Positions 12,185-30,992 of a stretch of DNA of 32,000 nucleotides are shown piece after piece. This DNA is from Saccharolobus solfataricus (lineage in GTDB: Archaea > Thermoproteota > Thermoprotei_A > Sulfolobales > Sulfolobaceae): the NCBI RefSeq assembly GCF_900079115.1, contig NZ_LT549890.1:1230001-1262000 (forward strand). Reading direction: 5' to 3'. Position numbers and translations under genes: made by a program. The first letter of the stretch is position 1, and every line of letters begins with the position of its first letter. The notes under the pieces are model-generated. The model was not told the origin of the DNA, made no database searches, and was given only the letters and a program-made list of their open reading frames with translations.

Positions 12185-13486
12185 TTATAAGGATGAAGAA
12201 GAACCTATCTTCCTCACTTGATCCATTGCCCACATCATTGGACAATATCCACCACACATAGTACACGCTTTAACCTTCGGAATACCAAACTGAGTGTAGA
12301 CTTGATAAGCTCTTTGGGGATCTATGAGCCTAGAAATCATATTATCCCACTCTAACTTACCCCTATAATAGCTAACCTCATCATCCCATTTCCTAACTCT
12401 TCTCCCTAACTTAACCACATCACCAGCGTGAGCTGCAATTCTGTAAGCAATTGCCCCTTCCTCAACTTGTTTAACAGTTGGCAATCCCAAATGTTCGGCT
12501 GGAGTCAAATAGCACAATAGATCTGCACCAGCAGCTGATGATATTGCAGCACCTATTGCAGAGGCTATGTGATCGTATGGTGCACCGACATCTATCGGCA
12601 AAGGACCTAAAACATAATATGGTACACCACCAGTTAACTTCTTCATCAATTTCACATCCCATGCTATTTCATTTAATGGTACGTGTCCCGGACCTTCTAC
12701 CATTACTTGCACACCCTCCTTTAACGCACTTTTAACCAGTCTGGCCGTTTCCAAAAGTTCACCAACTTGAAATTCATCATGAGCATCCCCCGTTGCTCCA
12801 GGTCTCAATGCATCACCTAATGAAATCACTGCGTCATATTCCTTAAACATCTCCAGTAAGTAGCCCCAGTGCTTCCTATATGGATTTTCAGAATTATTGT
12901 GTATCATCCAACCAGCTATCATATCCCCTCCCCTTGATACTATTGGAATTATCCTATTGCTCTTCAACGCCCTTATGGCTAATTCCTTAGTTATCCCAGC
13001 GTGAATTGTCATAAAGGCTACTCCATCCTTTAAGTGCTTCTCCACAGTACTCAGTAATTCATCCTCAGTGAAATACGCACCACCAGATTTCTTCTTAAAG
13101 GACTCTATGAAAACTTGATAAACTGGTACTGTACCAACAGGCAATTCAGACGCCCTTATTATCTCCCTCCTTATGTCATCTAAATCACCTCCAGTCGATA
13201 GATCCATTAGTGTGTCTCCCCACCTATTAGCAACCTTTACCTTCTCCAACTCCATTTGTAGATTTACAACTTCATCCGACGTTCCAATGTTTATGTTAAC
13301 TTTAGTGGTCAACCCTTTACCAATTGGCACCAACTTTTTGCTAGGATACTTAGCGTTCCTAATTAGGATTATTTTACACTCACTTATCCTATTTCGCACC
13401 TTCTCTACTGGAATTCCCTCAAGCTTACTAATTTCCTTCATCTCGTCTGTTATTTGGCCACTTCTTGCTTCCTCTATTATGGCCAT
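12185..13486 (-). CDS. thiC: phosphomethylpyrimidine synthase ThiC (radical SAM)
   Basis: 433 aa. Conserved blocks MTIHAGI, VSRGG and [10 protein letters not shown], plus the C-terminal CX2CX4C cluster [10 protein letters not shown]. Confidence 0.92.
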
Positions 13487-13621
13487 AAGAAATATTCATA
13501 TAAGTGAGTTATAAACCTTACTATATACTATAAGATGGGAGAATCTCCTAGTAGCTAGAACTATTCAATTTGAATCATCACTACGTAGTATTTTTCATCC
13601 TTCTCCTCTATTGTGAACAAT

Positions 13622-13815
13622 AATTTTGTTAATTTAGTATTAAGTCATATACAGCATTAGCTTATTTTCAATTCAGCATACGATTTAGATGTTGAAAGAG
13701 GAAGAGAAAATCTAACAATTCTTAATCTTCATCAAAATTTTCGTTACACAGTTACTACTTAACGAGAGTGGTTTGAAGGAAGAATTTAAACTTAAAATGA
13801 GAGAAACTGTTGTCC
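13622..13815 (+). repeat. copy A of a 170-190 bp intergenic sequence family, oriented toward the nurA-like gene
   Basis: By-eye alignment to 17232-17067 (reverse complement) and 20403-20600. Shared core TTTTCAATT..CATA.GATTTAGATGTTGA. Block GGAAGAATTTAAACT (13778-13792) is identical in copy B. Confidence 0.75.
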
Positions 13816-13865: not shown

Positions 13866-15038
13866 ATGAATTGGAAAGTAACAATAAAAAATACTATTGA
13901 GGAATTAGCGAAGCTCAAAAAAGATGTTAAAATAGAGAACGAGGGAGATCCAGAACATGAACTATCTGATGCAGAAGATAAAGTTATGAAAATAGAGTTG
14001 GAGGAAGAGTTTAAGCCAACGATGTACTCCTTATACGAATTTAAATCACTTAACGATAAAAGAATAGCGTCAATAGACTCCTCATCAAGGTATTTGAGGG
14101 ACTTCTCAGTTAACACATGTCTTATCGGTCTTTCAGTATATAGTAATAGAGAAGGTTTCATAGATGGTCCCTTTACTGTAGATATCCCATATATCGGAAT
14201 CAGTAGTTATAGGGAAATATTGGAAAGCTTAAAAATTGATGACATTAACGTTAGGTACAAGAATGTAGTGAACTACTATTACGTTAACGAGCCTAATAAC
14301 GAATATAAAATCGACGATATTGCGGATGAGTTGAGATTAGAAGCGGAAAACGTTGGGCTTAAAAGGGTTATTCAGAACCACGATATAGTTATTATTGACG
14401 GTCCAATATACCCAACACCATTGGAGCTAACTGAGGAAATAAACTTAGAGACAGAAGCTAGGAGAAAGCATAGATTAGCTTATGCCAAGCTAGTAAATGA
14501 GAGAATAGAATTACTAAACAATAACGTAATTGGAGTAGTGAAAAGATTAGAGAATTCAAAGAAGCTTTGGAGAGTTAAGGAAATTAATGAAACAATAGGT
14601 AACGTTAAAAGGATGAAGGACGTAACGATTATTGAACTAATAGACGAGCGTCTTTGTAGGAAAAACTATGAGTACGTATGCACTATAGGCCCATTTAAAA
14701 TTGAATATGCCCTAGAGGTTAAAGATGAAGATGGGAGAAATGTTATAGAAAAAGTTCCAACTAAGTACGCTTATTATGTCATCATTAGAAAAAAGTACTT
14801 CCCACCAACTTTTCTGAGAATAGAGAGTACTAATAAGAACCTAGACATCTCTCCAGTTTTATCTAGACTAACGGAGAGACTAATGCCCACTTACATTGAA
14901 ATCGTTGATAGGAGAAGTAAGAGAATATCGGCATCACTCTTTTTATACGCATACGAGATTGCCTCCAATTACTTAAACATCATTCACGACGATAAAATGG
15001 GCTACCTTAGCGTAATCTCACAGTTCACCTCTGAATAG
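13866..15038 (+). CDS. NurA-like nuclease domain protein (paralog, not in an mre11/rad50 context)
   Basis: NurA-like acidic motifs [20 protein letters not shown] and [10 protein letters not shown], with the expected order and spacing. It is paired with a HerA-like ATPase. Confidence 0.6.
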
Positions 15039-16815
15039 TCTTTATGGGAACCTCACTGAAATATATGGAATACACTATGGCCAATCCCGGTGTTGCATGC
15101 CTTAGAAAATCCTCATATTCCTCCAACCCTAATCTCCTCAGTACATGACTCTCATTTCTCATAACGACTTTAGTATTGGTAAGTTGAAGAACCAAGGGAT
15201 TTAAGTCCTCGGGGACATGAGTGGCTAAAACTACCCCTATGTTCCTAACCCTACCTAGCCTCATTATCCTATTTATTAACCCCTCTACAATGTCCTTTGA
15301 TACATTCTCTTGATCAGTCTGCGGGAAGTACTCGTGGGCTTCATCCATTATTACCAAAGTTAACTTAGTCGTCTCCTTCATCTTATATAGTTCATCCTTC
15401 CAGTTGAAGAAATCCTCTAGAAGCTTATACGCTATAGTGGCAACTGCCTCTATTGACGCTGATCTATTCATAACCCAACTTAAATCCACTACTACATCAC
15501 TATATGACGAAAAAACGTCTTTAGGCTTAAAGTCCACAGTACCGGGCACGGTGAAAATACCGTAACTATCATAAGCCTTTAAGGTTCTTAAAATGGCCTC
15601 TTTAGTCTGGTAGGGAACATCAAGGCGTTTCATAGCCTCTTCGAAAGCCTTCCCCATATTAATGGTCAACATCTTTTTACTCCCATCATAAGAGGAAAAT
15701 TGTTTAGATTTAGATCCAGAGACCATCTTCAAATCGTAAAACCCGCTGATCTTTCCAAGTAGGGATCCCGGGGTTAGTCTATCTCGTAGGAAATCGCTTA
15801 GCTGATCTTCGTAAAAGGTCTGTTTCTTATCAGCTAGCTCATAAAGGTCATATCCAATTATTTCAAACATGTTATTCACAATGGCCTCCCAATACATTGA
15901 AGCCTTTGGAGTGAAATACGGAGTAATCTTATTGAAATTTTTTAGAACAGAATAGAAGTTTATTGAATAGGGTATGAGGAATACCTCTGATCCATTACAT
16001 TCCTCTAAAACTCCATCCTCTTTAACGTCTAGTATATTATCACAATCATACCAATTGGCGAATTTTTCGGCGTGATCCTTTAGCGATATCGATCTTGAAG
16101 CCTCCTCAACTACTGGCATAATTACCGCAAATCCCCTTCTCTTTTCAATTAAGTAGTTAATGAAATCCCCTTGCCTATCGAAAATGAAAGTACCCTTATC
16201 GATTTCCTCACTGCTTATCATACTTTTTAACAAAGTAGTTTTTCCAGACCCAGTTGTGCCTAAAATTAACGTATGATGCCTTAGCGTATATTCGTCAAGT
16301 CTAACGCTAGCATCAGTCTCCTCTCCTCCTGAAAATATTTTGCCTATAGTTATGCCCCTACTTGGAATATTCAAGATCTTTTCTATTAAATCGTGGTTTG
16401 GAATGAAGACTGGACTTTGAGGATCAACTGGAGAAACTGGTGGTCTTATTTTTCCGTTCTCAATCTCAGCAATTGGCTTTAGCTCCACATAAGTTGTGGT
16501 AATAATGGTTGTTGGATCCTTAGGATAGCTCAATTCCCTAATTCCTAACTTAGATAGGGCATCAGCCCTTGTTATGGCACGAACTTGTCCTAAAATTGTA
16601 ACTGGCCTAGTTATACTTCTAATGGCTAAATATTGACCTTTCTTTACATCGGAGTTTAGATAATCCTCAAACGCTATATCAACACCAATCAACTCATTAT
16701 CCTTAAGGCTAACACTCTCAAATCTAGTTATTCTACCAATTAGTTTACCGAATTTTTTCGCATCTGCTTCAGCTTCGTTTAGTTTATCCCCTAACTTCTT
16801 TACTAACTCTTCCAC
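15025..16815 (-). CDS. HerA-like (DUF87/FtsK-HerA superfamily) hexameric ATPase
   Basis: N-terminal HAS-barrel-like region (GRITRFES...GQYLAIRS...[10 protein letters not shown]). Walker [15 protein letters not shown]. Walker [16 protein letters not shown]-terminal block [24 protein letters not shown] start. Confidence 0.85.
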
Positions 16816-17066: not shown

Positions 17067-17232
17067 GTGAATGGCAATTTCATTCATTTCAGACTCAGTT
17101 TAAATTCTTCCGAACTACATTAGTTAAGTGCTTTAATTGTGTGACAAAATCCTTGGCAAATGGTTTAAAATTGTTACATCCTCTCCTCGTCAACATCTAA
17201 ATCTTATGTTAAATTGAAAAATAACGAATACC
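17067..17232 (-). repeat. copy B of the intergenic sequence family, oriented toward the herA-like gene
   Basis: The reverse complement reads TTATTTTTCAATTTAACATAAGATTTAGATGTTGACGAGG...GGAAGAATTTAAACTGAG... It aligns with copy A over its whole length (3 mismatches and 1 gap in the first 33 core columns). Confidence 0.75.
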
Positions 17233-17429
17233 TTTTATGGCCGTTGTTTTACACACTCCTTAGAAATACTTTAGCCTTACCCTCTCTCTTTTTTGAAATA
17301 TTTTCTTTGTCATGATAATAAAGAAGATAAAGGGAGTAGTGGTGTCATTTCCTTCAGAGAGGATAATGAGGGAGATAGTAGAAGAGTTAAAGGAAGATGA
17401 AAGCAAGAACAAGAAGTGAATTAACTTTT

Positions 17430-19109
17430 TTATTGTCCTCCTTTTTCTTTTTTCCATTTTTCTATTAATCTATTAAATTTATTTATATTATCTGGATTTA
17501 GTGTCCCTATAGTGGATCTTAAAACTTCAACGAACTTATATATATCAGAATTGTTGTCATCAAGACGGGAATATATATCCAGCGCTGTCTTTAAGCTAGC
17601 CGGTGAGATATTAAACTTTATTACCTTATCTTCTTTTTCATTTAGATTAACTCTAAGATATTTTACAAGATCCTTAACTTTATTCTTAAAGTCCTCACTA
17701 AAAGAAGCGTAAGTTTTAAGAAATTCATCTAAATCTTCGGTTTCTTTCGGATAATCAAAGTAAATTATCACGAACCTTCTTGCCAGCGCATCTCCAACAT
17801 AAAACAGATTTCTAGCATCGACTAAGTTTATTGTAGCAATAATTCGTATTCTTTTTAATGGTTCATTCTCTCTACTCTCCCTCTTTAACTTCTCATATAT
17901 TTCTAAGAAACTCTTGGTTACATTATCTATATTATCTCCATAACTCTTAATTTCCTCTATTAGAGCATTGGGAATTGACCATTCGCTAGGATATGGAGTA
18001 GAAAATATTGTCATTAATTCTCCAAATGCCTTATCAACGTCAGCCCTATTCAATTCATCAATTACGACGTAATAGTTCCCATCCTTTATTCTTGCAGCAT
18101 TTACGTAAGCTTCAATGAAAAGCCCGCTCTTCCACATTACAGATCCCTCTCTTATACTTTCTCCTCCTATCAAATTCCTTCTAAACCAAAGTGAATTGGC
18201 AGTAGCTACTTCATAACAGTTATCATTATTACCAGTTAAAGCTCTCACAGTCCTTATAGCTAAGCTAGTTTTTCCAGTACCAGGTGGGCCAGCTAGGAGT
18301 ACATTAGTAGTTTGTAGAGCTTTCAGTATAATGTTAACTGAATCTTGAGGAATATAGAAACCATTAAGATCTATTTGTGCGTTTTTATTACAAACTACTT
18401 CCTCTGATAGGTATTCTTTCTGAGTACTGAAACGAAACTTAGAATAAAATTCTAAAGTAGACCTAATTTCCTCTTTCTTCGATAGAATAAATTGTTGAAA
18501 AGCTTTAACTGCATCATTATTGTCTTCTGTATAGCATTGGTTTGATTGATTATTAACCCCTTCTAACTTATAATCTTCTCCCACCCATTTATTACTGTCA
18601 TTATAGTTTTTTCTTATGCTTTCGTGAAGCCAAAATATTTTTATTCTAAATCTTACTATCCAGACTTTGTCACCTTCCTTCCATCCTTTAAAATTCCTCA
18701 TCGCGTCCTTTGTGATATCCGTTACTACTCCGAATCCAATAATGCCTAGCTCTTTTGTTCTTAGAAGGGCTACCAGTATTTTATCGTTCTTAATTTCTAT
18801 TTTATTTTTATTCTCTGTATCATTTTTCTTATCTTTTCTCTTCTTATCTTCTCCAAAATAGATTTCGTCATACCTGTTTAAAATGCTACTAATATTGCTA
18901 CGATTTTCAGCCGAAGCACCCCATAAAGTATATCCTAATTCTCCATAAAAAGAATATTTTATAGATTCTACCCAATGAGATTTTTCACCTATAAAGAAGC
19001 AAGGAACAAAATTTCCTTTTTCAATATAATCGAGAAAAGTTTGCGCACTATCTTGAGAGTCTAGTAATTTTTTGAACTTGTCTCTGACTACTAACCAATC
19101 ACCATACAC
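17430..19109 (-). CDS. McrB-like AAA+ GTPase with a distinct N-terminal (possibly PUA/EVE-like) domain
   Basis: Walker A LLAGPPGTGKTSLA. McrB-type Walker B/sensor block YYVVIDELNRADVDKAFGELM. NxxD-type motif ATINLVDAR. The roughly 230-aa N-terminal region (FFIGEKSHW...LWG...LGIIGFGVVTD...GDKVWIVRFRIKIFW) has a PUA-like pattern, interrupted by a K/N-rich insert. GTG start. Confidence 0.85.
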   Translation of the reverse strand: MYGDWLVVRDKFKKLLDSQDSAQTFLDYIEKGNFVPCFFIGEKSHWVESIKYSFYGELGYTLWGASAENRSNISSILNRYDEIYFGEDKKRKDKKNDTENKNKIEIKNDKILVALLRTKELGIIGFGVVTDITKDAMRNFKGWKEGDKVWIVRFRIKIFWLHESIRKNYNDSNKWVGEDYKLEGVNNQSNQCYTEDNNDAVKAFQQFILSKKEEIRSTLEFYSKFRFSTQKEYLSEEVVCNKNAQIDLNGFYIPQDSVNIILKALQTTNVLLAGPPGTGKTSLAIRTVRALTGNNDNCYEVATANSLWFRRNLIGGESIREGSVMWKSGLFIEAYVNAARIKDGNYYVVIDELNRADVDKAFGELMTIFSTPYPSEWSIPNALIEEIKSYGDNIDNVTKSFLEIYEKLKRESRENEPLKRIRIIATINLVDARNLFYVGDALARRFVIIYFDYPKETEDLDEFLKTYASFSEDFKNKVKDLVKYLRVNLNEKEDKVIKFNISPASLKTALDIYSRLDDNNSDIYKFVEVLRSTIGTLNPDNINKFNRLIEKWKKEKGGQ

Positions 19110-19133
19110 AAAAAAGGGTAGGTAGTCTTGTAT

Positions 19134-20339
19134 TTAAATGTGTTCTTTCATTATCTTATCGATCTTCGATAAATTATTTTCATCTGACTCCAAAGGATCG
19201 ATGATAATCATATATAATAAATGACTATTATACCAAAAGTCTAGTATTCCGCTTTTTGCTCTGGCAATCCCATCCAATTCCATTGTAGCCTCATCTTCGT
19301 TATCGAAGTTAATTTGTTTAATTTCCAATCCAGGATAAACTAATACTGCTAATGAAGGATCATATTCATAAGTATAAGCCATAATTTTGAATCTACCCAT
19401 TGTAATATAACTAACTTTAGATGAGTACTTACATTCAAAGATAATCGGCCTTTCGTTAACAAGAGAAATATCCGGTCTTCCCTTATATTTCTCTATATCC
19501 TCTATATAATCAACCTTTCTTAGAGAGGATTGGCTAAGTGAGGCATTAAATATTATACTTAACCTCCTATTACCTCTTATAGCTATATATTTCTCTTCCT
19601 CCTTCTTTATTTCATAACCTTTAGATTCAAGGTAATTTACTACTAAGTAGAATACATAAAGCTCATATAATTTCCACATGATGAATTTTATTAATTTCTT
19701 GTTTATAGGCCTCTTGGGTGTCCTTATCCCTACCTTAATTTCCTCTAATTCTTTAGCCGTATAATACGCTTTGTATGCTCGTAATAACCAATCTGGGTCA
19801 GTATAGGACGGATCTCTAAAATAACCATCCGGAAATTCCTCCTTGATTTTATCGAGCTGAGAAAAAGTCTGGTCGAAATCATCCAAAAAATTAAAGTAAC
19901 GAGGTACTTGTTCTTTTCTTACTTCAATTTTACTTCGTTTTTCCTTAATAATGGAATAAATTCTTCTCGTAATATAGCCTAAGATTCCATATTCTGGAGC
20001 ATTATATCCCTCGGTAAAGCTATGATAGGCTACCAAACCCATAGAGTATACCGGAATACTTAGGTCTACATTCAACTCACCATAAAGGTCATTGGAGTAT
20101 TCAATTGAAAATTCTCTATAGGTTAATCTACTCTTTTTTGCATCCTCTGCAGATCTTACTACACTAGCTGTTATTAAGTACATAAGGTAATAATAAATAT
20201 ATGATAGTGTATAGTCATCTAGAGGGACTTCCTCAGTTCCATTAAAAGTTGAGAGCAACTTTTCAACATCTAAGATCCCCTTATATTGTAGATAATAACT
20301 TCCAACCTTTTTTAGAAGCGCCCTATCTCTCCTATTCAC
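19134..20339 (-). CDS. McrC-like PD-(D/E)xK nuclease subunit
   Basis: The C-terminal half carries YELYVFYLVVNYLE, then GRPDISL...RPIIFECKYS (a PD...ExK catalytic motif) and FKIMAYTYEY, matching McrC layout. It ends 24 nt upstream of the McrB-like gene on the same strand. GTG start. Confidence 0.65.
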   Translation of the reverse strand: MNRRDRALLKKVGSYYLQYKGILDVEKLLSTFNGTEEVPLDDYTLSYIYYYLMYLITASVVRSAEDAKKSRLTYREFSIEYSNDLYGELNVDLSIPVYSMGLVAYHSFTEGYNAPEYGILGYITRRIYSIIKEKRSKIEVRKEQVPRYFNFLDDFDQTFSQLDKIKEEFPDGYFRDPSYTDPDWLLRAYKAYYTAKELEEIKVGIRTPKRPINKKLIKFIMWKLYELYVFYLVVNYLESKGYEIKKEEEKYIAIRGNRRLSIIFNASLSQSSLRKVDYIEDIEKYKGRPDISLVNERPIIFECKYSSKVSYITMGRFKIMAYTYEYDPSLAVLVYPGLEIKQINFDNEDEATMELDGIARAKSGILDFWYNSHLLYMIIIDPLESDENNLSKIDKIMKEHI

Positions 20340-20358: not shown

Positions 20359-20367
20359 AATATTTAA
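20359..20367 (-). promoter_or_regulatory. TATA-box-like element for the mcrC-like/mcrB-like operon
   Basis: On the minus strand TTAAATATT spans -28 to -20 relative to GTG 20339, consistent with a leaderless transcript. Confidence 0.4.
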
Positions 20368-20402
20368 CCATAGATTCCTAAGTCATCATAAGTATGAATA
20401 AC

Positions 20403-20600
20403 AATTTTATTAATTCAGTACAAATCATATGAAGTGTTAATTCATCTTCAATTTAACGTATGATTCAAATGTTGAAAAGAGAAGAGGAGGCAATTTTTAA
20501 TTCTTTTTCAAAAATTTTATTACATAACTAAAGTATCTGATAAATGTGGCATTAGAGAAATTTAAACTTAGTTTCAAATGCATGAAATCGTTATCCATTC
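20403..20600 (+). repeat. copy C of the intergenic sequence family, oriented toward the ATPase gene at 20820
   Basis: AATTTTATTAATTCAGTA...CTTCAATTTAACGTATGATTCAAATGTTGAAAAGAGAAGAGG...AGAGAAATTTAAACTTAG aligns by eye with copy A from 13622 onward and with copy B. Confidence 0.7.
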
Positions 20601-20783: not shown

Positions 20784-20822
20784 AACTTCTGGGGCAGAAG
20801 TTGAATTCTGGGGCAGAAGTTG
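20784..20822 (+). promoter_or_regulatory. tandem palindromic operator-like repeat overlapping the ATPase start codon
   Basis: The 17-nt unit TTCTGGGGCAGAAGTTG occurs twice (20787-20803 and 20806-20822, period 19). The first copy sits in a perfect palindrome AACTTCTG-GGG-CAGAAGTT (20784-20802). An A/T-rich TATA-like AAAAAATTATAA lies at 20774-20785. Confidence 0.6.
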
Positions 20823-21881
20823 CTATTTGATGAAAGGCCTAAAGAAAACAGAGAAGACTTGTTTGATAGGGAAAAAGAGATTAAAGAAATAATGAGTAAC
20901 ATTAACAGGCCTTTGATTTTAATCACTGGAGTCCGAAGAATAGGTAAAACATCAGTATTAAAAGTCGCACTTAATGAGATAAAAATACCCCATGTCATAA
21001 TAGATTGTAGAAACTTACGCCCTAACTACAGTAGAGGGGATCTATACTCACTATTCTCTAACGCTTTTTCATCAAAACTATCCACCTTCCTTGACGTGCT
21101 AAGTAAGATAAGAGGGGTTAGCATTTTAGGTAACAGCGTTGAACTAAAATGGAAGGGTAGAGAATACGTCAGTTTATCAGATCTTTTTGATCATTTGAAC
21201 GAGAAAAGGATAGTAATAGGGATTGACGAAGCTCAAAAATTGAGGGGACCATTATCAAATGAAATAAAAGAAGCTATTGCTCATGCTTACGATTATGACA
21301 AAAACTTAACCTTTATTTTAACGGGCTCTGAGGTGGGACTACTTCATGACTTTTTAGGAGTAGAGGACCCCGGGTCACCGCTCTATGGTAGATACTATTT
21401 CGAGATAACGTTAGAAAGGTTTGATAAAGAAAAGAGTAGGCAGTTTTTAAGAAAGGGTTTCGAGGAGTTATCATTAAAGGTCGAGGAGAATGTAATACAA
21501 GATATCATCGCAATGGTTGATGGTATCCCGGGATGGTTAACTTTAGCAGGTAATCAATATTTCAATAATAGGGATTTGAAAAGAGTAAAGGATCTGGCAA
21601 TAAACGTTGCTTTGAACGAAATTAACAGCTTGATCTCGGTTAAAAATAACGTCTCTCCCATTGTAGCAAAACGTTACAGAACAGTCCTAAGGTGTATAGC
21701 TAAGGGAATGAATAGTTGGAGTAAGATACTCAATTGTGTACAAAATGAGGAAGGTAGTACAATTTCCACTAGTGTTCTTAGTAACATTCTAAATACTTTG
21801 AAGAAATTGAGCATCATCGACGAAAATTACCGATTTTTAGACCCAGTTTATAAGGAAGCGTCTAGGATGCTTAGAAATTAA
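20820..21881 (+). CDS. archaeal ATPase family protein (Arch_ATPase/PF01637-like P-loop with C-terminal DUF234-like wHTH)
   Basis: N-terminus LFDREKEIKEI, Walker A LITGVRRIGKTSVLK, Walker B IVIGIDEAQKL, and a helical C-terminal region. TTG start at 20820. Confidence 0.8.
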   Translation: MLFDERPKENREDLFDREKEIKEIMSNINRPLILITGVRRIGKTSVLKVALNEIKIPHVIIDCRNLRPNYSRGDLYSLFSNAFSSKLSTFLDVLSKIRGVSILGNSVELKWKGREYVSLSDLFDHLNEKRIVIGIDEAQKLRGPLSNEIKEAIAHAYDYDKNLTFILTGSEVGLLHDFLGVEDPGSPLYGRYYFEITLERFDKEKSRQFLRKGFEELSLKVEENVIQDIIAMVDGIPGWLTLAGNQYFNNRDLKRVKDLAINVALNEINSLISVKNNVSPIVAKRYRTVLRCIAKGMNSWSKILNCVQNEEGSTISTSVLSNILNTLKKLSIIDENYRFLDPVYKEASRMLRN

Positions 21882-22045: not shown

Positions 22046-23190
22046 ATTACAAATGCTAAAAGCCTTGCCCTTCTAGGGGCTGGGATGAAAGTCTAAATAC
22101 ACCCTTTCTTCTTAAAATATTTCGTGGCTAGGAGGAGGGGTAAGAAAAACCCAATCAGAGCTACTGTTGCAATGAAGATTGGCCTCACTCAATCTCTCCT
22201 AGACCTATCAAACAACTATGTTAAGCATTAAGGTATTTGTTATTCTGGTTGAAAGAAAAAGGGGTGAATCATAACCAGAACAAGAAGAAACTCCTCGATT
22301 TAGTCCACCAAAGTGTTGGCGAACTACCAATATTGGTTATCCCAGAAACTTAAAGGAGTACTTGAACTGGAGAATGAAGGAAACTAAGCTTGTTATTAAA
22401 GGTGATGAGGCATACCTTAAAGTCGTTTTTGAGAAGGAAAGGGAAGAGATAATACCAAAGGAGAGTGTAGCAGTAGATATAATATGGATGACGTTGTAGT
22501 TGGGAAAGACGATGTTAAATACGTTAGGATCCCAACTAGACTGGCTGAGGCTCATCATTGGAAGTCATTAGCTGAGTCCCTACAAAGAAAGTATTCAAGG
22601 AGGTGGAGGAGTAATAGAGAGATTCTATTGAGGATTCGTTCTTTTCATTTGAAGGCTAGGAGGATTATGGAGGATTTTGCAAGGAAAGTTGGTAAGTGGG
22701 TTGTTGATGAAGCCAAAAGGATGGGTGCTAATGTGGTTAAGTTAGAGAGGTTAACTAATATGATTAAACGTTAGTGCTTTCAGAAAGTTTATAGCTTTAG
22801 GCAAAGGATATACCACTAGATCATAGTCTAAGAACTTTTCCAAAATACTAGTGTGAGGAACCTTTCGTCGGGGTTTAGGGATCGTCTCTATTTAATGCCG
22901 TATCGCCGTGTTCAGTATTGGGTTGAGTGGGAGGCAATGAAGTGTGGTCTTCTAGTAGAATTCGTTAACCCTAAGTGTTCTTCTGTCCTATGCCCTAAGT
23001 TTGGGAAAAAATGGAGGAAAGCGTACATCGTTGATTTCATTGTTCTTGTGGTTATGAGAATGATCGTGATGTTATTGCTGTAGTTAATCTTAATGGGAGG
23101 GGGTCTCTGACTCTCTTGACTGCTCCTCAGATGAGACCCGAATCGATAAGGGGAACCGCCATTTATGGCGTTGAGAAAGTCAGAAGACTA
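22046..23190 (+). pseudogene. tnpB: decayed IS200/IS605-family tnpB element (multiple stops and frameshifts)
   Basis: The left end ATTACAAATGCTAAAAGCCTTGCCCTTCTAGGGG is homologous to 6092-6126. tnpB fragments lie in different frames: [40 protein letters not shown]...[12 protein letters not shown], then [43 protein letters not shown]. The zinc finger and DRDV motif are broken by a frameshift. The tail reads [20 protein letters not shown]. Confidence 0.75.
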
Positions 23191-23644: not shown

Positions 23645-25459
23645 ATGCCATTACCAGTAATACTACATGAAACTACTCAAGTTAAAGATTTAGTTACTGC
23701 ATATAGGGAAACGTTTAATGAATATCCTTCTGTTGAACAAGAAAACACGTGGAGAAGGCTCTTAGATATACTTAAAGGCCTTAATATATCTCATCCTATA
23801 ATCATGGAATATCCAATATTTACAGAAAGAGTTGACACTATCTTTGTAGATAAAAATAGAGCCTTAGTAGTTGAGGCTAAGGGTTGGAAGAAAGTAGAAC
23901 GAATAGATGATCTCACTATTAAGGCTGATGGAGAGCTTCACTTAGATCCATGTTATCAACTAAACAACTATGTGACTAAATTAAACACTTTCCACTCCTC
24001 AAGTATAAAATTTGATGGTACGCTCTTCCTTTATAACACTATGGACTATTCCTCCTCGGAATGTGAAGTGTTAAGAAACCCTAATGATCTGAAGAAGAAA
24101 CTTGATAACTATTCGCCGGGAGGCATACAAGATGCTGACAAAATAGTAAACGGGAAGTTTGTATTAACCAAGGACTTCATTAAATTTGTTGCTGAAGTAA
24201 AAGAACATTTAAAAGGGAACGTGGCTAAGGCAATTTTACCTTATGGTTTTGGTCTAACAGAGGAACAAGGTTTAATCTTAAGCAAAGTTTTGAAAGCTCT
24301 TGAAGATAAAGATGTGAAGAAGAACTTTCTTATAAGAGGTGGTAGTGGGTCTGGTAAGAGCTTATTAGCCGTGACTATCTTCCTTGAAGCGTTTAGTAGG
24401 GGCTATTTCACTATCTTATCTTATGTGAATCAAAGATTACTAAATACCATAAGATTACTACTAGGTGGAAGTGAAAGGAAACGTAAAGAAGGTAATATTT
24501 ACAGAAGTAAAGCACAAGCTTTATCCCAGTTTATTATGTTTTACTCGACGGGTTATGGTTTCGGAGTGGGAGAGGAGAAGTTCCCGGAGTGGTTTAAGAA
24601 AACCTTTGAAAGAGATGTAGACGATATAGACTTAATCGTATTTGACGAAGCCCAAAGGATGAATGTTAACGTAATAAAAAATTCTTCAAGAGGAAGGGTT
24701 AACGTGTATTTTTATGACGACTCTCAGATATTATTAGGAGATGAAGAGGGGACTGAAGAGACCTTTAAAAAGTATCTTACCAACGTGGAAGAATACCAAT
24801 TATCCTCATCTATAAGGGTACCAAAGGATTATATAGAGGCAGTGAAAGGCTTACTTGAAGGGAGGAAAGTTACGGTAAGGGGCTATGATTTTAGGATCTT
24901 CAATGATGTAATGAGTATGATAAATGAATTAAAGAAAAGGAAAGACGAGGGCAGAAAAGTGGCGTTAATATGCAGCTTCACGGAATCTGTGGGTGATAAG
25001 AAAAATAAGACAAAGTGGACTTTAGAAAACATAAGGATAGGGTATCCGTTACAATCTGGTTTCGATCTTTACAAGAATACCAGTTTAAGGGTTAAGTGGC
25101 TTATGGATGAGAAAACTGAATATCCTAAATACTGGAGAGGAGAATTAGATCCCCTACAATACTGTGCCTCAGTATATGGTGCGCAGGGATTTGAGGCAGA
25201 TTATGTGGGAGTTGTATGGGGAAGAGACATGATATGGAGGGATAGTTGGACCGTCAATCCAGACCTTACACCTATTACGGATTATGTGGGTGGAAGGGAT
25301 TCCTTAAAAAAAGTGTTAAAAAGACACAAAACAAAGGCGCTTAAACTACTAAAGAATAGATATTACATTATGTTAACCAGAGGGATAAGAGGAGTTTATC
25401 TCTTCTTCGAGGACCGTCAAACTGGTGAGAAAGTAGATGAATTAGTTGAGGTTATGTAG
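23645..25459 (+). CDS. DUF2075-type P-loop NTPase (SF1-helicase-like) with N-terminal PD-(D/E)xK-like nuclease domain
   Basis: N-terminal RVDTIFVD...ALVVEAKGWK (a D...ExK pattern). Walker A IRGGSGSGKSLLA. Walker B LIVFDEAQRM. C-terminal YYIMLTRGIRGVYLFFED is typical of DUF2075. GAGG lies about 10 nt upstream of the ATG. Confidence 0.75.
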   Translation: MPLPVILHETTQVKDLVTAYRETFNEYPSVEQENTWRRLLDILKGLNISHPIIMEYPIFTERVDTIFVDKNRALVVEAKGWKKVERIDDLTIKADGELHLDPCYQLNNYVTKLNTFHSSSIKFDGTLFLYNTMDYSSSECEVLRNPNDLKKKLDNYSPGGIQDADKIVNGKFVLTKDFIKFVAEVKEHLKGNVAKAILPYGFGLTEEQGLILSKVLKALEDKDVKKNFLIRGGSGSGKSLLAVTIFLEAFSRGYFTILSYVNQRLLNTIRLLLGGSERKRKEGNIYRSKAQALSQFIMFYSTGYGFGVGEEKFPEWFKKTFERDVDDIDLIVFDEAQRMNVNVIKNSSRGRVNVYFYDDSQILLGDEEGTEETFKKYLTNVEEYQLSSSIRVPKDYIEAVKGLLEGRKVTVRGYDFRIFNDVMSMINELKKRKDEGRKVALICSFTESVGDKKNKTKWTLENIRIGYPLQSGFDLYKNTSLRVKWLMDEKTEYPKYWRGELDPLQYCASVYGAQGFEADYVGVVWGRDMIWRDSWTVNPDLTPITDYVGGRDSLKKVLKRHKTKALKLLKNRYYIMLTRGIRGVYLFFEDRQTGEKVDELVEVM

Positions 25460-26736: not shown

Positions 26737-28050
26737 CTATTTTAATACTTTCTGTTTTGCCTCTACAAACTGTTCAGCTTCAGTGGAACCTTCCATTGCA
26801 GTAGTGGACGCTTCTCCCCCAGACGCTATTGTTAACACTAGGTCAAAGTAATCTGTTCCAACCTCTCTCTGGTGGCTTACTGCAGTATAGCCTTCTGCTT
26901 GTGCTTGGAACTCTAACTCTTGTAGTCTTACATATGCTGGCATTCCTTCATTTCTATATGCTCTCGCTAATTTGAATGTATGGTAGTTAATTAAGTGCCA
27001 ACCTGCAAGAGTAATGAATTGGAATTTATAGCCCATTTCTCCCAATTCGTTCATGAACTTGCTAATTTTAGAATCATCCATAAATTTCTTCCAGTTAAAT
27101 GAGGGGGATAAATTGTACGCTAACATCTTACCTGGATAATGAGTGTGAATAGCCTCAGCAAATTGTCTAGCCTCTTCCAAATCTGGCTTAGAAGTCTCAA
27201 ACCACAATAGGTCAGCATAGGGTGCATAAGCTAATCCTCTAGCTATGGCGTATTCAATACCACCCTTTATCTCATAATATCCCTCTGATGTCCTCTTTCC
27301 TGTTAAGAATTGATTATCAGTCTCATCTACATCGTTAGATAAGTATTTAGCATTCAGTGCGTCTGTCCTTGCTATTAGTATTGTTGGTACTCCTAATACG
27401 TCAGACGCTAGTCTTGCAGCGTTTAGTACTCTTATAAATGCACTTATAGGGATCAGAACTTTCCCTCCTAAATGGCCACACTTCTTCTCTGCTGCTAATT
27501 GATCTTCGAAATGTACCCCTGCAGCCCCTGCCTCTATTAAGGCTTTTGTTAATTCGAAGGCGTGAATTGGACCACCAAAACCAGCTTCAGCATCTGCAAC
27601 AATAGGCAGTAAATAGTCAATATCATGTTTACCCTCACTCCAAGATATTTGATCAGCCCTTATAAGGGCGTTATTTAACCTCTTTACTAGGTTTGGAACG
27701 CTGTTAGATGGGTATAAGCTTAAGTCTGGATAAGTTTGATTTGATAAGTTGTTATCTGCAGCTACTTGCCATCCACTTACGTAAATAGCCTTAAGGCCCG
27801 CCTTTGCCATTTCCACTGCTTGGGAACCCGTTAATGCCCCAAATGTTGCCACATAGGGCTCAGTATTTAGTAAGTTCCAAAGTTTGTGAGAGGCTAACTT
27901 AGCTAAACTATACTCAATTCTAATAGATCCTCTTAATTTAACCACATCCAAGGGCTTATAATTTCTCTTTATTCCTCTCCACCTTGGATCTTCAGACCAC
28001 TCATATTCGAGACTTTTCTCCTCTTCAATCCATTTATCTCGGATGTTCAT
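26737..28050 (-). CDS. aceA: isocitrate lyase
   Basis: 437 aa with the ICL signature KKCGHLGGK and ICL/PEP-mutase-family sequence throughout. It lies downstream of malate synthase. Confidence 0.93.
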
Positions 28051-28511
28051 TTTTTCATCCTAATCTATATACACATATTTTAATATATAAACTTTAGCAT
28101 TAATAGTTTATGTCTTTCCCTATCCAATTTAAAGATATTTTATCAACTTCTTGGCAAGGTCTAAAAAGTATTTATATTTTAAGGAATTTATAGTCAACAT
28201 TTCCATGTAATATTGACAAAAAGAAATCTTTTAATACGTCCTAAAAAGCGAAATTATAGTTAGATCTTCAACGTCATTAGTAGAATTTTACTTGACTCTA
28301 ATTGAGAAAACTAAACACTTTTTAACGAAACTCTAGCTATAACTCGCATAAGCCTTTAGCTATGCGTTTACTTAACATAAAAATTAGAGAAAATAAAAAG
28401 TATTTAGATCAAGGCAGTAGAACGAGATAACCTTATGTAAATTACGATTTTTTTACAAAAAAGAAGAGTCCCCTTCATTTTTTGTTTAAAAAATAATAAG
28501 AATTAACCTAT

Positions 28512-30992
28512 TTACCAGTAATTGTCGTAAACGTAGTCGTATAACTCCAATACCCACTTATCCAGTTCTCCTCTTTTTACCTTATCTTCAATCATTTTTC
28601 TAAACGAGAATATGCTATCCATTACCTTTGACCTCCTCTCTGGATCCAATGGAGAGAGTATGAAGAGTATCTTCCCGCTATTCATTATGTACTTGGGATA
28701 TAACATCTCTTTCATTAATATTTCCATAATTACTGGGGCCATTGATCTGTCAAACCTCGGGGCCAAATTAATAAGCTCTTCCTCGATCTCAGAAGCGTTA
28801 GCGTTAAGGATTTTTGCCAGCTTCTGAGCAGCTTCTTTAGCAGACATCTCCCTAAACGGACCTGAACTATAAGCCTTAGATATTACCTTATACACCTCTT
28901 CCACCGTTGAAGCGTTATTTGTCTTTCCAAAGGTTTCAGCTATTCTCCTAGACGCTCTCATATCTTGTTCTTTGTAAAACTCATATGTCCAATCTAAGTG
29001 TAACTCCCACAACTTCTCGAATATATCCTTTACCTTCGTCCCCTTTGTGACCTTTAGAACGTCTTCAGCTGGAATTACACCATCCTTAGTTAGCTTTGGT
29101 CCCTTAATATATCCATCCTTTGTGAAGCTAGCATCCCTATTTATTACACTCCATAGCCAAGAAGTGAATATTCTATAGGTAGCTAAGTCGTTCATGAACC
29201 TTTGCTTTAATTCATAATCATCTATTGCCGCAGCTAAGTTGCCATTTAGCAATTGGAAACCGTAATTCGCTGCCATATAAAACGCGTGTTGAACGTGTTC
29301 TGGTGTAATGTCTCCCTCTGGGATGTCATATAACGAATGCCATAGGTCTTTTCCACCCCATAATTCCTTATTAAATAATAGCTTTTCTGGAGTGTTAATC
29401 ATTTCCTTGGTTATAACCCAAGGCGTTATTTTTCCTCTTTCATCAATTAGGCCAAGCTTTTGGAATAACGCTCTTTCTTCTGGTGTTAACCCACTATCCA
29501 CGGTGGGTAATTTGGTTCCCTCTACCTCAATGTAATTAATTGGTGCGTCAATCATTTTCTGTAACTCATCTAAACTTGCCCTTAAGGGTTTGCTCCCTGC
29601 CTCTACATAAGCTTCTTCCTTAGTCGCTACCCAACTCTGTCTGAACATATCGTAAAGTTTACCCTTTACTTTTCCGTTAACTATATCCTCTAAAGTGATT
29701 TTACCTTCAACTTTACCCTCTGCCACAAAGATAAGTCCTATTAGCCTCTCCCTTAACTTATCTAGCTTTATTCCCCTTAATGCCTTTAAGTTGTATCTAT
29801 TTCTCCCGAATGGGTCAGTTTGAGGGTAGAGCATTACTGCCGCCATACCACCTACTGGAGCAGCATCGGCTTCGCCGTTCTTCGCCCCAGCTAATAGCAT
29901 CATGAGTGCGTTGTACTTTTGATAAGCCATCATGTTTGGTGAGGTCATGGTAATGTTTTGGGGATCTGGAAGTACTTTCTCTTGTAACCACATCTCAATC
30001 AGACTTCCCAAATAGTCCCATCTACCGTTATTTGATTTTATGAGTCTCTCACGAAATATCCACAGTATTACAGGGAAAAATCTTCCAGCATTGACCTCCT
30101 CATAAAGGAGAGCGAGCTTAAGTGTACCTATCTTAAGTCCTAGTTTAGACTCGATTCTTCTCAAGATCTTTTCTATTATCAATGCCTCATCCGGTGTCTG
30201 GGTTTTAGGTAGATAGAAATATACTCCAGAACCCGCACTCTTCAGACTATTATAATTGTTTAGGGTATATATAACGGCAGAAACAATTATAGCCGGTACT
30301 GGTTTACCATTTAACGTTATATCGAAATCCAAGAGGTGTAATCCAGGGAGTCTGTGGAAAATCACTGGCCACTTATCCCTAGGTTTGTTTAAGCTGTACG
30401 TTTTTCCCTTCTCGTAATAAGGATTTGGAGCCTTACCGGAGAGGAAGAGTTTTACGTTCTTTCTTCCCTCCCATACGTCAGCAATTGTTTTACCAGAACC
30501 AAAGGGTATATACCATGCAGGTGAGGCGTCTTCCTCATCTTCCATAACACATGCTACGTCTGAGTTTATTTGATTATACGCCCTACTCAGAGGATACCAA
30601 GGTCCAGTGATTTCTAACCCTGGGTTATTGAGGGGATGTGCGTCCTTTGGTATTGGTACATTTTCATTTAACCTCCATTTTAGCTTTGACTGTACCCCGA
30701 GGAAGTTATCTATCATCCCTTGAATGATTTCCCTAAAGGTTCTCTTATTTCCATCAGCATCTACAAAGACTTCGTCAAAGGATGGAAAAGCACCTTTTGA
30801 GGTCACGGGGTCTTTTGATTCTAACCATAGTCGCCTTTTATTAATAACCTTTCTTATCTCATCTGAGAACTCAACTGCGAGCTCCTCAATTAGTTTTTCA
30901 ACACTTACAATCCTATCGTTTATGGTCTTTTCTCCGAATAGGTCACTATACTTTTGATAGATCTCCTCAGGGATTTTAAGGCTAGAAGACAT
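28512..30992 (-). CDS. aceB: malate synthase (large archaeal form)
   Basis: 826 aa. NNGRWDYLGS corresponds to the malate synthase CGRWDY motif and NDLATYRIFTSWLW to the D.AT.EI.R.Q.WQW block. Adjacency to isocitrate lyase supports the call. Confidence 0.8.
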   Translation of the reverse strand: MSSSLKIPEEIYQKYSDLFGEKTINDRIVSVEKLIEELAVEFSDEIRKVINKRRLWLESKDPVTSKGAFPSFDEVFVDADGNKRTFREIIQGMIDNFLGVQSKLKWRLNENVPIPKDAHPLNNPGLEITGPWYPLSRAYNQINSDVACVMEDEEDASPAWYIPFGSGKTIADVWEGRKNVKLFLSGKAPNPYYEKGKTYSLNKPRDKWPVIFHRLPGLHLLDFDITLNGKPVPAIIVSAVIYTLNNYNSLKSAGSGVYFYLPKTQTPDEALIIEKILRRIESKLGLKIGTLKLALLYEEVNAGRFFPVILWIFRERLIKSNNGRWDYLGSLIEMWLQEKVLPDPQNITMTSPNMMAYQKYNALMMLLAGAKNGEADAAPVGGMAAVMLYPQTDPFGRNRYNLKALRGIKLDKLRERLIGLIFVAEGKVEGKITLEDIVNGKVKGKLYDMFRQSWVATKEEAYVEAGSKPLRASLDELQKMIDAPINYIEVEGTKLPTVDSGLTPEERALFQKLGLIDERGKITPWVITKEMINTPEKLLFNKELWGGKDLWHSLYDIPEGDITPEHVQHAFYMAANYGFQLLNGNLAAAIDDYELKQRFMNDLATYRIFTSWLWSVINRDASFTKDGYIKGPKLTKDGVIPAEDVLKVTKGTKVKDIFEKLWELHLDWTYEFYKEQDMRASRRIAETFGKTNNASTVEEVYKVISKAYSSGPFREMSAKEAAQKLAKILNANASEIEEELINLAPRFDRSMAPVIMEILMKEMLYPKYIMNSGKILFILSPLDPERRSKVMDSIFSFRKMIEDKVKRGELDKWVLELYDYVYDNYW

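Follow-up and report, generated by a model that had tools for sequence, protein, structure and literature searches.

What kind of system is encoded by the two closely spaced genes on the minus strand of a 32,000-nucleotide (nt) stretch of the Saccharolobus solfataricus genome (contig NZ_LT549890.1, positions 1,230,001 to 1,262,000; hereafter the window, from whose first letter positions are counted)? The first gene of the pair, mcrC-like and located at 19134-20339, encodes a protein of 401 amino acids (aa), and the second, mcrB-like and located at 17430-19109, encodes a protein of 559 aa; both genes, and all of their parts given below, lie on the minus strand. A first-pass annotation had read them as a type IV-like restriction module in which the gene for the nuclease precedes that for a McrB-type GTPase with a non-canonical sensor. 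From comparisons of sequence, predicted structure and gene order, we consider it likely that the two proteins form an S. solfataricus restriction complex of the McrBC type (type IV, modification-dependent), the activity of which is predicted.

Both open reading frames (ORFs) begin with GTG, in each case the first possible start after the upstream stop codon, and a spacer of 24 nt (19110-19133, minus strand) separates them. The starts of homologues (MNRRD... and MYG[DE]WL...) agree with both ORFs, and the two genes are annotated at identical coordinates in public S. solfataricus genomes; the frames, starts and gap therefore stand as first described, and every motif quoted for either protein was found in its place. 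Because their database relatives are numerous (622 for the 559-aa protein and 58 for the 401-aa protein) and conservation extends over the full length, we regard both ORFs as real genes. The exact 559-aa protein is also encoded in S. solfataricus P2 (AE006641.1, about 1,159,034-1,160,713) and in other assemblies of this species.

The McrB-type motor protein

What does the 559-aa protein resemble? Its McrB-type AAA+ GTPase module and C-terminal region extend over aa 247-559 (17430-18371, including the stop codon); an alignment to the AAA+ domain of Escherichia coli McrB covers aa 247-384 and 420-481. Three motifs characterise the module: the Walker A motif GPPGTGKT (aa 274-281; 18267-18290), the Walker B and McrB motif IDELNRAD (aa 350-357; 18039-18062), which lies in the stretch IDELNRADVDKAFGELM at aa 350-366, and the NxxD signature of McrB, here NLVD (aa 428-431; 17817-17828). 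Among 53 homologues, residues G274, P276, G277, K280 and T281 of the first motif, D351, E352, N354, R355, A356 and D357 of the second, and N428 and D431 of the third are invariant, as is the pair R444-R445, and the family consensus around NxxD reads T-M-N-x-x-D-x-R-N. The alignment to E. coli McrB pairs GPPGTGKT with GPPGVGKT, IDELNRAD with IDEINRAN, INLVD with MNTAD, and ALARRF with ALRRRF.

Database searches led to the same family. When PDB sequences were searched with phmmer, E. coli McrB topped the list (6hz4_A, E value 2e-14; 6ut6_A, 5.9e-14), followed by Thermococcus gammatolerans McrB (6ut3_A and 6ut5_A, E about 1e-4). The Pfam scan returned AAA_5 only (1.6e-12, aa 269-370), and the best NCBIfam model was McrB, matched in part at 6.3e-16; since the 58 bits of this match fall far below the equivalog cut-off of 637, it does not count as an E. 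coli McrB equivalog. Several close homologues already bear the NCBI name "McrB family protein". In a census of McrBC systems, NxxD defines the McrB-like GTPases and NxD marks the unusual CoCoNuT branch (PMC11090510); the McrB NxxD motif is also defined in PMC7680126. Judged by its sequence, the 559-aa protein is a McrB-family AAA+ nucleoside triphosphatase of the ordinary NxxD group, and the original assignment to the McrB-type GTPases is borne out by AAA_5, the NCBIfam McrB model, the phmmer match and the invariant motifs.

The McrC-like nuclease partner

Is the product of the upstream gene, whose named relatives among the 58 are all called "hypothetical protein", the nuclease that such a motor would require? 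Its C-terminal part, aa about 241-401 (19134-19619), is by its invariant residues a predicted PD-(D/E)xK nuclease domain. The 'PD' pair is P289-D290 (codons at 19470-19475), within RPDISL (aa 288-293), and the 'ExK' triplet is E302-C303-K304 (codons at 19428-19436), within IIFECKYS (aa 299-306). In 37 McrC-like sequences, G287, P289, D290, E302, C303, K304, Y305, S306, R316, F317, K318, A321 and Y322 are all invariant. The N-terminal half, aa 1 to about 240 (19620-20339), which the Foldseek alignments described below include, would be the McrB-binding finger or stalk, equivalent to DUF2357.

An AlphaFold2 model of the protein has a predicted local distance difference test (pLDDT) score of 83.4 and shows helices and a beta-sheet at aa 73-110 in the N-terminal half. 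In a Foldseek search of the PDB, the best matches to this model were McrC chains, namely E. coli 6hz4_M (2.2e-7) and T. gammatolerans 6ut7_G (1.4e-6), with further McrC chains at 3.2e-6 (E. coli 6ut6_G) and 5.7e-4 (7vsr_M). These alignments span about 410-430 columns each, so that both halves of the protein are covered, and the model thus suggests that the N-terminal half may bind the McrB ring. The nearly invariant residues R75, R125 and R175 are, from the sequence alignment, candidates for the basic finger residue (K157 in E. coli) by which McrC repositions the NxxD motif. As a supporting detail, an hhalign comparison with E. coli McrC places D290, E302 and K304 on D244, D257 and K259, RFKxMAY on LYQLMNY, and LVYPG on LIYPH. 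When PDB sequences were searched with the family profile, a single match was obtained, the Cas4 nuclease of S. solfataricus (4ic1, E 0.022), which extends across the same motifs.

Several results count against the identification as McrC. Neither Pfam nor NCBIfam nor PADLOC matched the 401-aa protein. None of the library models, Pfam DUF2357 and McrBC included, matched any of the 37 family members at E values up to 10, nor did they match the distant McrC-like proteins of Caldivirga, Thermocladium and Desulfurococcaceae. The hhalign comparison with E. coli McrC was itself not significant (E 0.047, probability 1%). In the structural search, the template modelling (TM) scores of the McrC matches were low (0.29-0.36), which we attribute to a difference in the relative orientation of the two halves, and Can2 nucleases matched the model as well, from 1.6e-4. 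Taking motif, fold and neighbourhood together where matching by hidden Markov model (HMM) fails, we conclude that the 401-aa protein is a highly diverged McrC of Thermoproteota and a predicted nuclease. The PD...ExK motif claimed for the upstream partner thus proved to consist of invariant residues, and the expected nuclease fold was recovered with McrC chains as the best matches. As a consequence, a family of about 60 "hypothetical" proteins of Sulfolobales and other Thermoproteota is here newly assigned as McrC, that is, as the nucleases that accompany the proteins already named "McrB family" by NCBI.

The N-terminal sensor domain

What does the motor carry at its N-terminus? We built an AlphaFold2 model of aa 1-250 on a 32-sequence family alignment (pLDDT 88.3, predicted TM-score 0.85) and compared it with the PDB by Foldseek. 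All of the top 50 matches were YTH domains (YTHDF1/2/3, YTHDC1/2, Mmi1 and CPSF4-YTH), with a best E value of 4.9e-4, probabilities of 0.9-1.0 and target-normalised TM-scores of 0.40-0.58. A search of viral structures added little: it gave one unnamed match at 1.2e-3, together with weaker ones to further PUA-like folds, among them ASCH, DUF3850 and SRA. From the model and these matches, the YTH-like core, a member of the PUA superfamily, would occupy aa 34 to about 167 (18609-19010), in which the motifs LWG (aa 62-64), GIIGFGVVTD (aa 122-131) and GDKVWIVRF (aa 146-154) are located. The suggestion that the first 230 or so residues have a PUA-like fold therefore survived the structural search.

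The elements of the model follow the order beta1 (34-41), alpha1 (43-55), beta2 (60-66), alpha2 (67-85), beta3 (111-118), beta4 (122-134), a loop and beta5 (150-161), which we take to be the order found in YTHDC1 and other YTH domains. In the sensor family, G59, W63, G64, G127, D135 and W143 are invariant, W46 is nearly so, and most members have a tryptophan at position 150 (W150). Of the two invariant tryptophans, W63 belongs to beta2 and W143 to the loop between beta4 and beta5; by the order of secondary-structure elements, they presumably occupy the places of the YTHDC1 cage residues W377 and W428. We suggest that W63 and W143, probably together with W46 and W150, form a candidate pocket for a modified base.

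A K/N-rich low-complexity insert had been thought to split this domain. The stretch is indeed present at aa 87-110 (18780-18851), where the pLDDT of the model is about 56; in the model, however, it merely lengthens the loop between alpha2 and beta3 and leaves the fold undivided. The loop exceeds its counterpart in other homologues by only about 10 residues, and this extra length is seen in no more than S. solfataricus and the species closest to it.

The sequence-level searches argue against a YTH assignment. No Pfam model, including those for YTH, EVE and ASCH, matched residues 1-250 of any of the 32 family members at E values up to 10, and the NCBIfam and PADLOC libraries did not recognise the domain either. 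The family profile retrieved neither YTH nor EVE from PDB sequences, only spurious matches to CopM, and its hhalign comparison with a verified YTHDC1 sequence was not significant. Going by the structural model, we nevertheless conclude that the N-terminal region is a YTH-like PUA-fold domain, for which base binding is predicted.

Might the domain bind DNA without reading a modified base at all? LlaJI/LlaI-type McrB homologues bind through a B3 domain, and non-canonical McrB homologues that bind DNA site-specifically do exist (PMC7680126; bioRxiv 10.64898/2026.08.31.748284). If the domain described here were likewise a sequence- or shape-specific DNA binder, as its missing sequence-level link to YTH or EVE and a merely predicted pocket geometry might allow, the McrBC-type motor nuclease would cut unmodified foreign DNA or act with a self-protection partner. 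We consider this distinctly unlikely. First, the fold matches are YTH domains, and YTH and EVE domains have been described as readers of modified bases (PMC7641849). Second, several invariant tryptophans are found where a YTH-type cage would fit. Third, no methyltransferase gene was seen beside the pair in the window.

The best fold matches are eukaryotic proteins that read N6-methyladenosine (m6A) in RNA, which raises the further question of whether a modified RNA could be the ligand, for instance m6A in an rRNA, a tRNA or a viral transcript. The target would then be RNA or a ribonucleoprotein, as has been proposed for the CoCoNuT branch, whose YTH-like domains are predicted to target RNA (PMC11090510). 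However, the GTPase described here has the NxxD motif and not the NxD that marks CoCoNuTs (PMC11090510), HEPN, cold-shock and coiled-coil domains were all missing from a Pfam scan, the McrC-like partner is of the plain PD-ExK type and retains its catalytic residues, and the single characterised archaeal YTH-McrB binds DNA (PMC7680126). An RNA target is, in our judgement, extremely improbable.

The sensor acts like an exchangeable specificity module. Unrelated N-termini occur in relatives that show 44-56% identity in the AAA+ module, and a paralogue in Metallosphaera yellowstonensis (locus L005) is devoid of this sensor domain. Among 1.84 billion cluster representatives searched with the sensor profile, 48 carry the domain; of the proteins exceeding about 450 aa, nearly all have McrB motifs behind it, and the remainder look like fragments. 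The identifiable members of the family in the searches run are Thermoproteota. The sensor of this McrB lineage is newly assigned as YTH-like, even though current HMM libraries miss it.

Proposed mechanism and relation to known systems

How might such a complex work? The sequence and structure comparisons bring out its architecture, motifs, folds and gene linkage; for its oligomeric state, the nucleotide that it uses, its ligand and the cutting of DNA, we draw on what the solved structures of the E. coli and T. gammatolerans complexes suggest (PMC7680126, PMC6624300). First, the YTH-like domains would bind a modified base in foreign DNA. Second, the AAA+ modules would assemble into a GTP-loaded hexamer. 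Third, the N-terminal region of the McrC-like protein would enter the ring and trigger GTP hydrolysis via the NxxD motif. Finally, a McrC dimer would bridge two hexamers, and the PD-ExK sites would cut the DNA.

Which base might be recognised? We tentatively regard N6-methyladenine (6mA) as the leading candidate, though its chances fall well short of even, because the sole characterised archaeal YTH-McrB binds 6mA DNA and S. solfataricus DNA has been reported to be without GATC methylation (PMC11033074). A reader of 6mA need therefore not attack the host's own DNA. N4-methylcytosine (4mC), 5-methylcytosine (5mC) and a virus-specific modification remain open as other candidates. A more far-reaching combination, in which the sensor reads a mark other than 5mC or 6mA (4mC or a hypermodified base of Sulfolobales viruses or plasmids) and the McrC-first gene order, by which the nuclease is translated before the motor, reflects a subclade-specific change in assembly or dosage, appears unlikely to us; if true, the Sulfolobaceae family would count as a type IV system with a function of its own and not as a mere divergent copy. 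A modification-dependent nuclease could limit the transformation of S. solfataricus and its relatives with Dam/Dcm-methylated DNA grown in E. coli, and it could shape which viruses infect these model archaea. In Thermococcus kodakarensis, McrBC pairs restrict transformation (PMC13385129).

The closest known system is the McrBC of T. gammatolerans (PDB 6ut3-6ut8; PMC7680126). Both systems are archaeal and combine a YTH-like sensor and an NxxD McrB GTPase with a McrC that has a ring-binding N-terminal region (predicted here) and a PD-(D/E)xK nuclease domain, and in the structural search with the 401-aa model the McrC of T. gammatolerans (6ut7_G) ranked second. In contrast, detectable sequence similarity between the two McrB proteins is restricted to about 25 residues around Walker B (E about 1e-4), and the sensor of S. 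solfataricus, for all its match in fold, resembles none of the solved YTH structures at the level of sequence. The N-terminal domain of T. gammatolerans McrB, which has the YTH fold, binds 6mA DNA (PMC7680126), whereas 6mA is a candidate ligand for the S. solfataricus sensor. The gene order, too, is reversed in S. solfataricus.

With the McrBC of E. coli K-12 (EcoKMcrBC), the pair shares an AAA+ motor (phmmer 2e-14) in which the Walker A, Walker B, NxxD and RR motifs align, a two-gene operon (a probable one here) and a McrC catalytic motif that aligns, if weakly (hhalign, E 0.047); E. coli McrC is also the best structural match to the 401-aa model. The sensor of E. coli McrB, however, is a DUF3578 domain that binds 5mC, whereas a YTH-like fold is predicted here, and the E. 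coli genes run from mcrB to mcrC with a 1-nt overlap, not from mcrC to mcrB with a 24-nt gap. A third comparison is offered by the EVE/YTH-McrB fusions, in which a PUA-like modified-base reader domain is likewise fused to the McrB GTPase; among the EVE architectures of defence systems EVE-McrB is the most frequent, and fusions with a YTH-like domain are described as rare and as found mostly in archaea (Bell, Wolf and Koonin, PMC7641849). In contrast to these, the domain described here is missed by the Pfam EVE and YTH models and forms a small family of its own, with the 48 representatives mentioned above. A PUA-like sensor on McrB is therefore not unusual, a YTH-McrB from an archaeon having already been solved; the first-pass proposal of a type IV-like module is supported, with a sensor that is less unusual than at first sight (PMC7641849, PMC7680126). 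The pair is a divergent instance of the known McrBC defence nuclease and not a new kind of system, and it provides a second, very distant archaeal example of how YTH-like readers are wired to McrB motors.

Gene order and distribution

How might the reversed gene order have arisen? We surveyed the order of homologous pairs at loci L001-L021, together with the window and other S. solfataricus loci. McrC precedes McrB in the window and the S. solfataricus loci, in M. yellowstonensis (L001), in L002 and L004, and in the S. islandicus-type L020 and L021; where McrC comes first, the spacers are about 22-25 nt (as in L001, L002 and L020), and McrC identity to the window protein is at least 60% in L001, L002 and L004. 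McrB precedes McrC in L005, L007 and L008 of Sulfolobaceae and relatives, in L009 (Caldivirga), in L010 and L011 (Thermocladium), and in L013 and L014 (Desulfurococcaceae); throughout these loci the genes overlap or are at most about 45 nt apart where read, and McrC identity is 26-42%. The pair is divergent, head to head, in L006 (McrC identity 39%), and in a metagenome-assembled genome (MAG; L019/L003) McrB is followed by three other genes and then McrC (identity 51%).

Because the distant relatives keep McrB before McrC, the canonical order appears ancestral in this lineage and the reversed order derived. The inverted arrangement that had first drawn attention is thus real in the window, and it is a derived rearrangement in one Sulfolobaceae subclade (McrC identity at least 60%) rather than a property of the family, which adds a subclade-specific flip of gene order to what is new here. 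It has been stated that McrB lies upstream of McrC 'in most cases' (PMC11090510), which implies that exceptions to the McrB-first order are known in general. The McrC-first order need not alter the mechanism. Linkage of the two genes is maintained across Thermoproteota whichever order they take: they are adjacent at 11 of 14 genomic loci, the exceptions being L003 (with another system between them), L012 and the divergent L006, and they are adjacent also in L015-L018, L020 and L021.

The pair is probably transcribed as a unit, for the 24-nt spacer has no room for a second promoter. Upstream of the mcrC-like gene the sequence reads TTAAATA (20361-20367, minus strand), which may be an archaeal TATA box; its centre lies about 25 nt before the GTG codon. 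This position suits a Sulfolobus promoter for a leaderless transcript, and TTAAATA is thus a candidate promoter of the mcrC-like gene.

Two loci of the survey showed further peculiarities. On M. yellowstonensis scaffold NZ_JH597761.1, two paralogous systems with opposite gene orders lie about 13 kilobases (kb) apart (L001, 6001-8876; L005, 2649-7230). The first runs from McrC to McrB and has the YTH-like sensor; the second runs from McrB to McrC, has a different N-terminal domain, and its McrB frame is interrupted by about 1.2 kb. In the MAG (Thermoprotei archaeon JBMFJH010000026.1; L019, 1270-10928; L003, 2725-7254), about 7 kb separates the mcrB-like and mcrC-like genes. Between them lie genes for a 1748-aa DEAD/ResIII helicase, a protein of 453 aa and, on the opposite strand, a methyltransferase-like protein of 514 aa (537-aa ORF); this insert resembles the archaeal system of helicase-nuclease, methyltransferase and DUF499 mentioned in PMC7641849.

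Genomic neighbourhood

The pair is part of a segment some 12 kb long (about 13.8-25.5 kb of the window) that lies between ThiC (12185-13486) and isocitrate lyase/malate synthase (26737-30992). The same segment holds a NurA/HerA pair, a gene for an archaeal ATPase_2-family ATPase, TnpB/Cas12f-like fragments and a NERD-SLFN-type helicase gene, and G+C is slightly lower at 17-21 kb. It looks like a defence island.

Could the pair instead be a housekeeping or repair-related motor nuclease that works with the neighbouring HerA and NurA and has no defence function? The genes for HerA and NurA adjoin the pair in the window and are also near it in M. yellowstonensis L001, and deletion of McrBC affected growth in T. 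kodakarensis (PMC13385129). The HerA and NurA genes are, however, absent from the other 13 related loci scanned. Moreover, the mcrC-like/mcrB-like pair occurs in few species among the genomes searched, is duplicated or disrupted at L005 and L002, and sits with mobile-element remnants and other defence-type genes, a pattern that fits accessory defence genes. We therefore hold a housekeeping role to be very unlikely, and defence by a McrBC-type complex remains our preferred interpretation. Since the co-occurrence is limited to the window and L001, we also rejected HerA and NurA as a general part of the McrC/McrB system.

The NurA gene (13866-15038, plus strand; second-type, Pfam 2.3e-39) and the HerA gene (15025-16815, minus strand; PADLOC 'HerA, Type III coevolved', 1.1e-48) are convergent and their 3' ends overlap by 14 nt, an unusual arrangement for a pair normally found in one operon. 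The ATPase_2-family gene (20820-21881, plus strand) is divergent from the mcrC-like gene; it starts with TTG and encodes 353 aa with a C-terminal MCM-type winged helix, and it is matched by the PADLOC models PDC-S27 and PDC-S01. It is intact in the window, and in S. solfataricus P2 it is split into pieces of 162 aa and 182 aa. Two short ORFs of 96 and 76 aa (22484-23083, plus strand) resemble TnpB/Cas12f fragments (Cas12f1-like TNB domain, 3.1e-4) and are probably a decayed element of the IS200/IS605 family. A 604-aa protein (23645-25459, plus strand) combines a weakly NERD nuclease-like N-terminus with a Schlafen-group-3/DUF2075 helicase domain (1.1e-72) and is matched by PADLOC as AbiO and Nhi; a similar helicase gene directly follows the McrC/McrB pair in the S. 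islandicus-type L020 and L021.

Overlapping the 3' end of the mcrB-like gene is a 65-aa low-complexity ORF (17260-17457, minus strand), which some assemblies annotate but which is probably not a real gene. An Rfam scan of the window found no RNA families. An intergenic element of about 130-150 nt is present in three copies (13600-13760, plus strand; 17125-17285, minus strand; 20380-20540, plus strand), with a mean column identity of 76% and the core TTCAATTYARCRTAHGATTYARATGTTGA; shuffled sequences gave no chance matches. Taken as inverted pairs, they flank the NurA/HerA genes on the one hand and the McrB/McrC genes on the other. We considered these inverted repeats as a cause of the gene order and rejected them, because inversion of a whole cassette leaves gene order relative to transcription unchanged. 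Each copy has a constant orientation relative to the next downstream gene (NurA, HerA or the ATPase_2-family gene), and further S. solfataricus assemblies have the element at these three sites too, whereas the loci of other species lack it. Either a regulatory region common to these genes or a remnant resembling a miniature inverted-repeat transposable element (MITE) could account for it.

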